DNA of 64,000 nucleotides from a virus (Duplodnaviria; Heunggongvirae; Uroviricota; Caudoviricetes): the IMG/VR virus record IMGVR_UViG_2737471993_000002; one strand, given 5' to 3'. A program made the position numbers and the translations under genes. The notes under the pieces are model-generated. The model saw only the letters and a list, made by a program, of their open reading frames with translations. It had not been told where the DNA came from and searched no databases. Of this stretch, positions 40,527 through 42,262 are shown in pieces. Positions within the stretch are counted from its first letter, which is position 1, and every line of letters begins with the position of its first letter.

Positions 40527-41630
40527 ATGAAAAATAGCTTTGACAGAGCACGCGCTGCGGAGAACACCTCAAAAGAGGCGATTGAGTATCTCGAAAGAGC
40601 ATCTCAAATGCAGGCCGTTATGATCTCGCAGGTTAGCAATGATATGAGATTCTCGGACGCATTCATGTTATTCACTCGCTTATCTCTGCTGATAACCAGA
40701 CGTCGGCCAGAGATCGCTGTTCATTGTATTTTGATACATGTTTTGCCGCACATTGCTGATGTAAAAGTAAGTGACATTAATAGGTTCATGGTGAACCAAC
40801 TGGTCAACCCTCTAATATTGGATGGCAAAATTGTTATGGGCCGCCGCGTTTTCTCTCTGATGAAGCAGTTCCTTAGCTGGTGCGCCTTCCAGGGGATGAT
40901 AGACGTGTCACCGCTAAACGATATGTCACTAAACAAAGTTGCCGGTGGCGCAAAGCCCACACCTCGCGAGCGGAAGCTGACCGACGCAGAGGTATGGGTG
41001 TTCTGGAATATATGGGACTACTTCAATGTGTGTGCTGGTACAAAATGGGCGGCCAGGCTATGTCTTGTATCCGCAAGACGACCTGACGAAGTACTGCGGG
41101 CTAAAAAAAGTGAGTTCAATCTTAAGCGTGGGGTTTGGAATCAAGGCAAGAGGAACAAATCTGCCCGTGAGCATTCTCTGCCTTTAAGCTCATTAATGCG
41201 CACTTGTATTGAAGAGTTGTTCGAATATGGTAAAGACAGCCAGTGGCTCGTGCCTTCGAATAAAAAAATCGGGAAAGACCTTCCTATGTCTAAAGTGGCA
41301 ATAGCCCAGGCATTACGTCGTATTCTGGAACGACCAGAACTGATGGAGCTTGAGCCATTTACACCCCGAGATTTGCGCCGTACTGCGCGTAGTTACTTCC
41401 CAGCATTAGGCATAAGCCAGGAGGTATCACGTAAAATCATGAACCACAGTCTTGAGGGGATAGATCGGGTCTACGACCGGCACGATTATATGGACGAGAT
41501 GCGAGACGCCTTAGAAAGTTTCTCGACGTACATCGCATCAATCGTAGAGCAACCGGATTTAGACGAAATTGACCACAAATTTAAGGGAGATCGTCTATCA
41601 ACAGAGCTTATTCGTGTAAATTTTTCATAG
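40527..41630 (+). CDS. tyrosine recombinase / integrase family protein
   Basis: C-terminal catalytic pattern (ARRPDE...LRRTARS...NHS...DRVYDRHDY) consistent with the R..H-x-x-R..Y signature. Confidence 0.6.
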   Translation: MKNSFDRARAAENTSKEAIEYLERASQMQAVMISQVSNDMRFSDAFMLFTRLSLLITRRRPEIAVHCILIHVLPHIADVKVSDINRFMVNQLVNPLILDGKIVMGRRVFSLMKQFLSWCAFQGMIDVSPLNDMSLNKVAGGAKPTPRERKLTDAEVWVFWNIWDYFNVCAGTKWAARLCLVSARRPDEVLRAKKSEFNLKRGVWNQGKRNKSAREHSLPLSSLMRTCIEELFEYGKDSQWLVPSNKKIGKDLPMSKVAIAQALRRILERPELMELEPFTPRDLRRTARSYFPALGISQEVSRKIMNHSLEGIDRVYDRHDYMDEMRDALESFSTYIASIVEQPDLDEIDHKFKGDRLSTELIRVNFS

Positions 41631-42011
41631 AGACTTTATGGCCTCAACAACCTTTTGTGATGCGCCTTTCTCTTTACCGAATCGCTCGTTATATGCAGCA
41701 AGAACCTGTTTTTCGTCCTCGTTAAGAGGAGCAGTGCCTTCTTTGTATAAAAATGCTGCGAGTTCGGGTTGGCGTTCTTCCAGCACCATCATCATAAGAC
41801 GACTTGGCTCAATGCCCAGTGCCAGCGCCAGCGGACGAACCTTATCGATAGGCAAAGGAATTTTGCCGCTTTTAATTAAAGAAAGGTTGTTGGCGTTTTT
41901 ATACCCAATTGTTTTGGCTATCTGGGCCTGGCTCATAGGTGAGGATTCAATCAACCCTGCGATAAAAGCAGCGTAGCGACTTTCTATAAATTCAATCTTG
42001 TTATCAGACAT
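41625..42011 (-). CDS. HTH (XRE-family) transcriptional regulator, repressor-like
   Basis: HTH segment MSQAQIAKTIGYKNANNLSLIKSGK; 128 aa; convergent with the recombinase, with a ~250-nt upstream region containing GGTAAG-TG-CTTACC. Confidence 0.55.
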   Translation of the reverse strand: MSDNKIEFIESRYAAFIAGLIESSPMSQAQIAKTIGYKNANNLSLIKSGKIPLPIDKVRPLALALGIEPSRLMMMVLEERQPELAAFLYKEGTAPLNEDEKQVLAAYNERFGKEKGASQKVVEAIKSL

Positions 42012-42262
42012 GGTTACAACCTTTGCGCGTTCAATTCTCTCTGGTAAGTGCTTACCGATATTACATCAAAGGTTAGGGTTGTAAAGCTATTATCATTTTT
42101 TTCGATAGGCACTTAAAAGACCGGTTAAAGGCCATTGCACGGAGAAAAATTAGCCCAAAACAGGTAAGAAAATCAACTTGCATATGATATGAATGTATTC
42201 AGTATTGATACAAATTTTAGTAGTATTCCTTACCATAGTATAAGTTAGAATGGATTGATTGA

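Follow-up and report, generated by a model that had tools for sequence, protein, structure and literature searches.

What does a gene annotated as an integrase do on an element which is found only outside the chromosome? This question is raised by a 64,000-nt stretch of the IMG/VR virus record IMGVR_UViG_2737471993_000002 (in the following the window, meaning the whole stretch that was analysed), which is an SSU5/pHCM2-like phage-plasmid of Escherichia coli. Elements of the SSU5 type were found exclusively extrachromosomal by Pfeifer et al. (PMC9600943). For positions 40527-42056, an earlier note made from the sequence alone had described a tyrosine recombinase converging on an XRE-type regulator, and had proposed that the recombinase could be a dimer-resolution enzyme rather than an integrase. 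Based on the comparisons described here, the recombinase and a 33-bp site beside its gene probably form a Cre/loxP-like multimer-resolution module under SOS control, which lies next to a putatively autoregulated XRE-type repressor.

The flagged region showed DNA-level matches to about 740 plasmids and several phage records, including Escherichia phage Cyrano (pLF82), pECOH89, Salmonella Typhi pHCM2 and Yersinia pestis pMT1 as well as SSU5-type phage-plasmids of Klebsiella and Enterobacter. The order of genes comprises a tRNA cluster, an AbiC-like gene, glutaredoxin, the recombinase, the helix-turn-helix (HTH) regulator, an open reading frame (ORF) of 70 aa, and CobT-like, CobS-like and DnaE-like genes. 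Within the SSU5-type group, this arrangement forms the conserved backbone.

The candidate recombination site

40527-41630, + strand: tyrosine recombinase gene (int), 367 aa, assigned by PF00589, PHROG 1, alignment and structure model
40396-40428, no strand: candidate recombination site of 33 bp, AATGATTCCATAC-CTACTAT-GTATGGAATCATT, a perfect 13-7-13 inverted repeat
40370-40389, no strand: A/T-rich element left of the site, from an ungapped comparison of 24 distinct loci
40320-40339: true terminator of the glutaredoxin gene (grx), with the site 3' of it

The earlier note had suggested a search near the recombinase gene for a short spacer flanked by two inverted arms, and such an arrangement was found about 100 nt upstream of the gene, outside the coordinates flagged in the note. 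The site comprises perfect inverted arms of 13 nt, which enclose the asymmetric 7-nt spacer CTACTAT, and ends 98 nt before the ATG of the recombinase. No other perfect inverted repeat with arms of at least 13 nt occurs in the window, where 0.03 would be expected. Since the site comes after the true grx terminator, it does not represent that terminator. The A/T-rich element, which begins 24 nt before the left arm, is moderately conserved with the consensus T.A.A.TT....AAA (CAGATT(T/C)..AAAA in many relatives). Its resemblance to the arm is weak, and it might serve as an accessory element or binding site. The literature that was searched contained no description of the site and no relevant mention of the arm sequences, with Gilcrease & Casjens 2018 lying outside that search.

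In eight relatives with recombinases 79-100% identical to that of the window, the arms of 12-13 nt were invariant, while the spacers read CTACTAT, CTATTAA, TTGTAAG and TTGGTAG. A spacer length of 7 nt was found in every site, with a freely variable sequence. The same layout beside the recombinase gene was present in all 24 distinct loci compared. Furthermore, a pattern scan of one genome per species located the site in seven further contigs, each time beside a homologue of this recombinase. Three of these seven belong to Chimaeribacter, where the protein is 57% identical, the neighbours are oxidoreductase genes, and both the regulator and the LexA (SOS) box of the recombinase promoter are missing. 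The megaplasmids of Pantoea, Erwinia and Rahnella are similar: there as in the Chimaeribacter contigs, the site stays by the gene without the regulator and mostly without the LexA box.

The arms change together with the protein. The type-A arm ATGATTCCATAC pairs with recombinases at least 57% identical to that of the window, while the type-B arm (TGACTCCAGAC/GTCTGGAGTCA), which comprises a symmetric change at two positions, pairs with recombinases of 44-50% identity. The latter are encoded on the Pantoea, Erwinia and Rahnella megaplasmids, on Photorhabdus plasmids and on phage-plasmids of Xenorhabdus and Providencia. For a Klebsiella homologue at 59% identity the arms GTGATTCCATAC/GTATGGAATCAC were determined. 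Among 20 distinct site sequences, 98.1% of the arm positions were symmetric and two-sided changes occurred at 4 of the 13 arm positions, and none of 500 shuffles reached these values. Since the site follows the recombinase and the arms co-vary with the protein, the palindrome is tied to the recombinase and not to the regulator or the phage.

In PLSDB, the type-A site was found on 795 plasmids (1582 strand-hits) and the type-B site on 100 plasmids (202 strand-hits). Since a palindrome scores on both strands, these counts mean one site per replicon. A second full site was present in none of the 795 type-A plasmids and in at most one of the 100 type-B plasmids; the window itself comprises one full site, and the rest of a sibling plasmid none. 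On the level of the chromosome, gene and site were checked in complete E. coli genomes. Both occurred in 252 of 5,426 genomes, at 255 places on plasmids and at none on a chromosome, and none of these chromosomes showed a site-like sequence at an E of 1 or better. Chromosomal integration with att sites, named in the earlier note as the observation that would contradict a resolution enzyme, is thus rejected for E. coli, where all copies lie on plasmids. A single site per non-mobilizable replicon without a chromosomal partner resembles a multimer-resolution site, and not an integration, inversion or cassette system.

The recombinase

The recombinase ORF matched PF00589 (E=2.9e-10), PF22022 (E=1.1e-4) and the integrase family PHROG 1 (E=4.8e-47). 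The predicted catalytic residues are R185, K211, R281 (at the His-II position), R284, H307 and Y316, and in an alignment of 29 sequences R185, K211, R284, H307 and Y316 were invariant or nearly so. The AlphaFold model (pLDDT 85.6, pTM 0.78) showed a two-domain fold with a core-binding and a catalytic domain. Profile matches, catalytic residues and model agree with the tyrosine recombinase proposed in the earlier note.

A comparison of the model by Foldseek gave a probability of 1.0 for lambda Int 75-356 (E=6e-7), XerA, the Tn1549 integrase, XerH and IntI4, while Cre was the 37th in the list with an E of about 1e-2. A profile search of the PDB sequences likewise matched lambda Int, beginning at its residue 69, as well as XerA, XerD and the Tn1549 integrase, and did not match Cre. 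A direct sequence search of the PDB gave no match for the recombinase or the regulator, for which profiles alone gave matches. The recombinase family comprises about 110 clusters of 44-100% identity, all of them from plasmid-sized contigs of Enterobacterales. Below this family there is a gap in identity, and the next proteins are P4-type integrases at 34% or less, which carry the arm-binding domain PF13356. This domain is absent from all of the about 110 family members. Altogether, the protein is a tyrosine recombinase of the lambda/P4-Int lineage without arm-binding domain, which by sequence comparison appears to work like Cre without being a relative of Cre.

Based on this layout, we infer binding and strand exchange at the site as follows. 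One recombinase monomer would occupy each of the 13-bp arms. In a plasmid dimer, the two sites would lie as direct repeats and synapse, and strand exchange across the 7-bp spacer would yield monomers. Resolution would be the selected function of the module, as it would keep the low-copy, non-mobilizable phage-plasmid segregating properly. The dimer-resolution enzyme of the earlier note is supported by the site, by its co-variation with the protein, by its single copy per plasmid and its absence from E. coli chromosomes, and by the missing arm-binding domain.

Probable SOS control of the recombinase gene

40453-40458 and 40476-40481, + strand: putative recombinase promoter, TTGATC and TAATAT with a 17-nt spacer, read from the sequence
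40481-40500, no strand: LexA (SOS) box TACTGTTTACTTATACAGTG, which abuts the -10 hexamer and covers the predicted start point

The putative promoter agrees with the consensus at 8 of 12 positions, which is just below the threshold of the scan, and both hexamers are conserved in eight relatives. The LexA box is the single instance of CTGT-N8-ACAG in the window. It agrees with 16 of the 20 bases of the E. coli LexA consensus TACTGTATATATATACAGTA and retains CTGT as well as ACAG in full. These two motifs were invariant, and the inner bases variable, in each of the eight SSU5-type relatives compared and in the Klebsiella locus at 59% identity.

Published expression data of the related phage Cyrano provide indirect support. 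The int RNA of Cyrano stood at a log2 of 5.6 in LB and reached 10.3 after 6 h in macrophages (PMC9928086, S1 Table), which corresponds to a rise of 4.65 log2 or about 25-fold, while the RNAs of dnaE, helicase and ligase barely moved and most Cyrano genes changed little (PMC9928086). The interior of the macrophage is described as an SOS-inducing environment, and ciprofloxacin induces Cyrano virions 39-fold (PMC9928086). Judged by the conserved box, the recombinase gene is probably under LexA control. In the lineages of the Enterobacteriaceae, host LexA would bind the box and shut the recombinase promoter; basal expression would serve resolution, and DNA damage would raise it. Such damage would coincide with RecA-driven multimerisation and with the lytic switch.

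A second, near-perfect LexA box (AATACTGTATATGCATACAGTATA) was observed outside the window on the sibling plasmid SP15_P2 (L023:24525-24548; record coordinate ~83.5 kb). It sits between two small divergent hypothetical ORFs and adjoins the metG/mrp cargo. This locus is a candidate for an SOS-controlled antirepressor and with that for a more conventional induction route.

The regulator and its operator-like palindrome

41625-42011, - strand: XRE/Cro-C1-type HTH regulator gene, 128 aa, with a helical C-terminal half, converging on the recombinase gene
42085 to 42058, - strand: sigma-70-like regulator promoter, TTTACA and TAATAT with a 16-nt spacer, directly upstream of the palindrome
42043-42056, no strand: operator-like palindrome GGTAAGTGCTTACC at the predicted start point of the regulator promoter
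42263-42475, + strand: orf70, 70 aa (PHROG 2627, function unknown), first gene of the rightward CobT/CobS/DnaE-like cluster

As stated in the earlier note, the recombinase and the regulator overlap at their 3' ends: both ORFs are real and share the 6 nt TCATAG (41625-41630). A terminator-like hairpin with a T-run was observed on the + strand at 41851-41877, inside the regulator gene and about 220 nt past the recombinase stop. At this hairpin the int mRNA would end in antisense orientation to the regulator. The assignment to the XRE type is supported by the fold of the N-terminus, while the sequence scores are weak (HTH_19 with E=7.8e-4, below the Pfam cutoff, and PHROG 8 with E=1.3e-11). In the AlphaFold model (pLDDT 72.7), the N-terminal ~62 aa form a five-helix HTH domain and superpose on C.AhdI, HigA, 434 and P22 C2, and for the helices 12-64 on C.AhdI a root-mean-square deviation of 1.5 Å over 62 columns and a TM score of 0.77-0.81 on the target were determined. 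Neither Pfam, NCBIfam nor structure matches revealed an S24 peptidase or autocleavage domain, and the C-terminus is helical. Since the regulator lacks the S24 peptidase domain, an induction by self-cleavage as for CI or LexA is precluded.

The core of the palindrome, GTAAG-YR-CTTAC, is conserved in pHCM2, pMT1 and relatives from Enterobacter, Salmonella and Klebsiella. It lies in a conserved block of ~45 nt, which also includes the regulator promoter, in relatives that are 74-78% identical overall. Since the palindrome is located at the start of the promoter and within this block, the earlier note's description of GGTAAG-TG-CTTACC as operator-like is fair, with position and conservation as its support. 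The additional claim that it belongs to a genome-wide family of palindromes failed in every test that was run, namely for the 14-mer, the hexamer, the spacing and the sibling plasmid. The 14-mer is unique in the window, and with up to two mismatches four copies were counted compared to 1.3 expected, an amount that 5 of 100 shuffles reached. The hexamer GGTAAG/CTTACC showed no enrichment (22 and 11 copies compared to ~19 expected per strand). The pattern GTAAG-N0-12-CTTAC occurs twice in the window compared to 0.54 expected (P=0.11), and the remaining 49.5 kb of a sibling plasmid do not contain it. Further GGTAAG/CTTACC hexamers at 42163 and 42229 were rejected as operators, as they are not conserved in relatives. 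The one other GTAAG...CTTAC palindrome of the window is the perfect 20-bp palindrome TAGTAAGTATATACTTACTA at 4696-4715, which lies between two + strand ORFs and differs in spacing from the operator-like palindrome of the regulator.

The 128-aa regulator would bind the palindrome at its own transcription start, which would amount to autoregulation, and would probably repress the divergent orf70/early operon as well. As a candidate lysogeny repressor it would be inactivated indirectly and not by self-cleavage. In the Cyrano lysogen, the regulator is expressed about 10-fold above background, and the Cyrano authors describe it as a putative repressor. The strongest responder of the region in macrophages is orf70 (CYRAN_46), which increased from a log2 of 4.3 to 10.8, while CobT, CobS and DnaE changed far less. 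Since orf70 is induced far more than the genes downstream of it, a separate transcript or a terminator after orf70 is suggested. The RNAs of the regulator, orf70 and int rise together across conditions, and the joint rise of regulator and orf70 is in line with a regulator which represses both divergent promoters and loses its activity post-translationally.

Furthermore, orf70 accompanies int and the regulator in distant relatives. The block of site, int, regulator and orf70 was also observed on ParA/Rep3 plasmids of Photorhabdus of 34-47 kb (CP177137.1, CP177142.1; L027, L028), where int and regulator lie 9 nt apart without overlap. No CobT gene was found in the 5-kb locus read on these plasmids, and the occurrence of the trio without CobT in the locus weakens the interpretation of the regulator as a lysogeny repressor. 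Altogether, the lysis-lysogeny repressor proposed in the earlier note is plausible: its expression in the Cyrano lysogen and its position facing the early operon are in favour of it, while the presence of the trio on small Photorhabdus plasmids and the missing autocleavage domain are not.

Isolated arm copies and the cargo region left of the site

36622-36633, + strand: exact arm copy ATGATTCCATAC followed by ATC, coinciding with the ATG of a 50-aa ORF
37634-37645, + strand: exact arm copy, intergenic, 200 nt upstream of the tRNA cluster
46447-46458, - strand: exact arm copy inside the DnaE-like gene, antisense, codons C-M-E-S-L
41133-41144, - strand: degenerate arm copy TTGATTCCAAAC inside the recombinase gene
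37646-40395: plastic cargo segment between the arm copy at 37634 and the full site
37840-38397: tRNA cluster
38593-39927, - strand: AbiC-like gene
40070-40315: grx

Besides the full site, the window comprises isolated copies of the arm, which, like the site and the LexA box, do not appear in the earlier note. The exact 12-nt copies are each followed by AYC and occur at the same positions in pHCM2 and a Klebsiella plasmid; for the copy at 36622 the position was found conserved in pHCM2 and K. pneumoniae. In the DnaE-like gene, the synonymous positions of the copy are unchanged in three lineages while the flanks diverge. Position 41133 reads TTGATTCCATAC in pHCM2, pMT1, Kluyvera and K. pneumoniae, and pL3995-2 carries an exact 11-mer there. 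Within a 111-kb genome, all copies are located at most ~10 kb from the recombinase and are oriented toward the full site.

Several explanations for these copies were rejected. As recombination partners or cassette boundaries they have no second arm and differ in their spacers, and one of them lies in the dnaE frame. The copy at 37634 is not a breakpoint of homology. Short conserved ORFs (MIPY...) do not account for the copies, as the reading frames are not conserved. Nor are the copies a general feature of the system, since the type-B phage-plasmids as well as the loci of Pantoea and Chimaeribacter lack them. As a guess, recombinase monomers may bind the isolated copies with a regulatory role.

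In alignments to the more distant relatives, homology sets in no more than a few nt from the site, and the segment to the left is different in each lineage. While it contains the AbiC-like gene and grx in the window, Cyrano comprises the very highly expressed CYRAN_43, and other relatives carry YafO toxin-antitoxin genes, a microcin immunity gene, phoH/Gp49 or, in Y. pestis pMT1, the caf1 F1-capsule operon. The junction of this operon in pMT1 lies at least about 75 nt left of the site and adjoins what remains of the grx terminator. The site marks where the plastic cargo region ends on the right in these plasmids. Since the ~30-nt element left of the site is conserved and no second site accompanies the cargo in the plasmids, a capture of cargo by the recombinase is a minority reading.

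The AbiC-like gene of the window encodes 444 aa. Its match to putAbiC, a putative abortive-infection family, falls short of the threshold (E=3.6e-4), and PHROG 18168 is matched strongly. PADLOC gave no match for this gene, orf70 or int. Across 40000-42600 no known RNA family was found, apart from one sub-threshold OmrA-B match at the grx terminator.

Weighing of the explanations

A number of observations weigh against a resolution module with an adjoining repressor. The entire case for the module is built on sequence comparison. At the His-II position the whole clade carries an arginine (R281), while five of six outgroup sequences carry a histidine. The versions of Xenorhabdus, Providencia, Nissabacter and Chimaeribacter have no LexA box, and a resolution enzyme with a housekeeping role is not usually repressed by LexA. 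Dimers could also be resolved by the XerCD of the host, and other recombinases or resolvases are likewise encoded by SSU5-type plasmids (PMC7969092). The isolated arm copies are neither needed nor explained by resolution, and a palindrome bound by the recombinase beside its promoter could mainly be an autoregulatory operator. For the regulator, the HTH assignment by sequence is weak (E about 1e-2 to 1e-3), to which the Photorhabdus loci without CobT have to be added.

An operator of this kind for the int promoter, bound by the recombinase or another dimer without any strand exchange, would agree with the palindrome lying 25 nt upstream of the -35 hexamer, and in several relatives 40-70 nt from the start codon; invariant arms around a free spacer suit a dimeric operator as well. 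However, the 13-7-13 arrangement with an asymmetric 7-nt spacer is the geometry of tyrosine-recombinase core sites, the orientation of the spacer relative to the gene is free (CTATTAA or TTAATAG depending on the locus), and the site accompanies the recombinase into contexts which share no other gene. Moreover, a catalytically complete recombinase that is kept at 44-100% identity on ~900 plasmids needs a substrate, for which the site is the sole candidate, and a purely regulatory operator is decidedly unlikely. To the same degree this applies to an exchange or capture platform, comparable to integrons or the pdif modules of Acinetobacter, in which the SOS-induced recombinase would fuse plasmids with the same site or take in circular cargo and in this way make the variable left region. 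The probable LexA control recalls integron integrases, and the homology of distant relatives starting within a few nt of the site next to a lineage-specific left segment fits this explanation. Published hot spots for the insertion of antibiotic resistance in the SSU5/pKpn groups point in the same direction, as they are located close to phoH, the ligase gene and the regulator (PMC9600943). Nonetheless, with a second site in none of the type-A and at most one of the type-B plasmids there is no cassette bounded by sites; the conserved left element separates the variable DNA from the crossover region, the caf operon of pMT1 joins even further to the left, and the half-sites have different spacers and no partner arm.

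The convergent overlap could also act as a switch, where SOS-released int transcription, antisense to the regulator, would lower the repressor and trigger the lytic cycle. Since the two genes overlap, both transcripts must overlap as well; no terminator lies between the genes, the nearest + strand hairpin being located inside the regulator gene, and the genes remain tightly convergent in relatives with as little as 44% protein identity. Furthermore, the element is SOS-inducible, yet its regulator has no autocleavage domain. In the RNA-seq data of Cyrano, however, the int and regulator RNAs co-vary over five conditions and are not anticorrelated, and their joint rise argues against a silencing of the regulator by int transcription. 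Together with the conventional antirepressor route offered by the second LexA box of the sibling plasmid, and with the Photorhabdus genes, which do not overlap, this makes the switch very unlikely. A true integrase which inserts the element into a chromosomal attB would agree with the annotation as 'site-specific integrase' found everywhere and with P4-type integrases as the nearest outside relatives. It is extremely unlikely in view of the exclusively plasmid-borne copies in the complete E. coli genomes (252 compared to none on chromosomes), the missing arm-binding domain, the perfectly symmetric arms without arm-type repeats, and the exclusively extrachromosomal state reported for these elements (PMC9600943). 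The resolution module, which we prefer, could be extended by the assumption that the SOS-released recombinase also binds the isolated arms and acts as a damage-responsive regulator or roadblock of the early genes, and might in addition catalyse an exchange between plasmids at the site, which would have built the cargo region with the F1 capsule operon of pMT1; this extension is unlikely.

Comparison to known systems

The closest likeness in organisation is to Cre/loxP of P1, which shares with the module one tyrosine recombinase beside one site per genome, perfect 13-bp arms, an asymmetric spacer, the low-copy plasmid prophage and the presumed resolution of dimers without accessory arm-type sites. 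Compared to loxP, the spacer comprises 7 instead of 8 bp, and the protein is nearer to lambda Int than to Cre. Another difference is the LexA box at the promoter of the recombinase, while to our knowledge no LexA box is known for the cre promoter. In ResD/rfsF of F and Rsd/crs of the Salmonella virulence plasmids, an integrase-family enzyme with a cis site just upstream serves multimer resolution. Their likeness to the module is one of layout and presumed role, and crs consists of direct repeats instead of a single palindrome.

The single-recombinase Xer systems XerS/difSL, XerH/difH and archaeal XerA/dif likewise combine one recombinase with a short inverted-repeat site, often beside the gene, and XerA and XerH are among the structural matches of the recombinase. 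These systems are chromosomal and coupled to FtsK or cell division, and their sites comprise arms of about 11 bp and spacers of 6-8 bp, whereas the recombinase described here is plasmid-borne and probably LexA-controlled. For the core-binding and catalytic domains of the recombinase, integrases of the lambda/P4 type were the best matches in sequence as well as in structure, and a 7-bp overlap region is typical of their lineage. Unlike them, the module has neither PF13356 nor arm-type sites nor a chromosomal attB, its site is symmetric, and its His-II is replaced by arginine.

In integrons, the primary site attI lies just upstream of the IntI gene, with variable cargo beyond the site, and in 2009 Guerin et al. 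are said to have described the integron integrase gene as LexA-repressed. While IntI4 is a structural match of the recombinase, the module has neither attC-like partner sites nor sites that enclose its cargo, and its protein falls outside the IntI clade. The regulator resembles C.AhdI, HigA and the 434/P22 repressors in its N-terminal HTH fold, the operator-like palindrome at its own promoter and the small divergent ORF. Compared to XRE/Cro-C1 repressors, its scores are weak, the helical C-terminal extension of ~55 aa is unmatched and the S24 peptidase is missing.

Altogether, the sequence data point to a new and well delimited recombinase/site pair of a known type, namely a Cre/loxP-like plasmid resolution module. 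Since a resolution system is expected on a plasmid prophage, no current idea is overturned. Less common are the probable LexA control, the two natural specificity alleles and the conserved orphan half-sites. The finding provides the 'integrase' annotated on about 900 sequenced plasmids with a concrete and testable function and substrate. These plasmids include pHCM2, pMT1, the resistance-carrying SSU5-type phage-plasmids of Klebsiella, E. coli and Enterobacter, and the megaplasmids of Pantoea, Erwinia and Rahnella. The two alleles, which differ at two arm positions, represent a ready system for studying the change of specificity and possibly a pair of orthogonal Cre/lox-like tools. Furthermore, the LexA control would couple the recombination of plasmids with the SOS response, on an element which is itself SOS-inducible.

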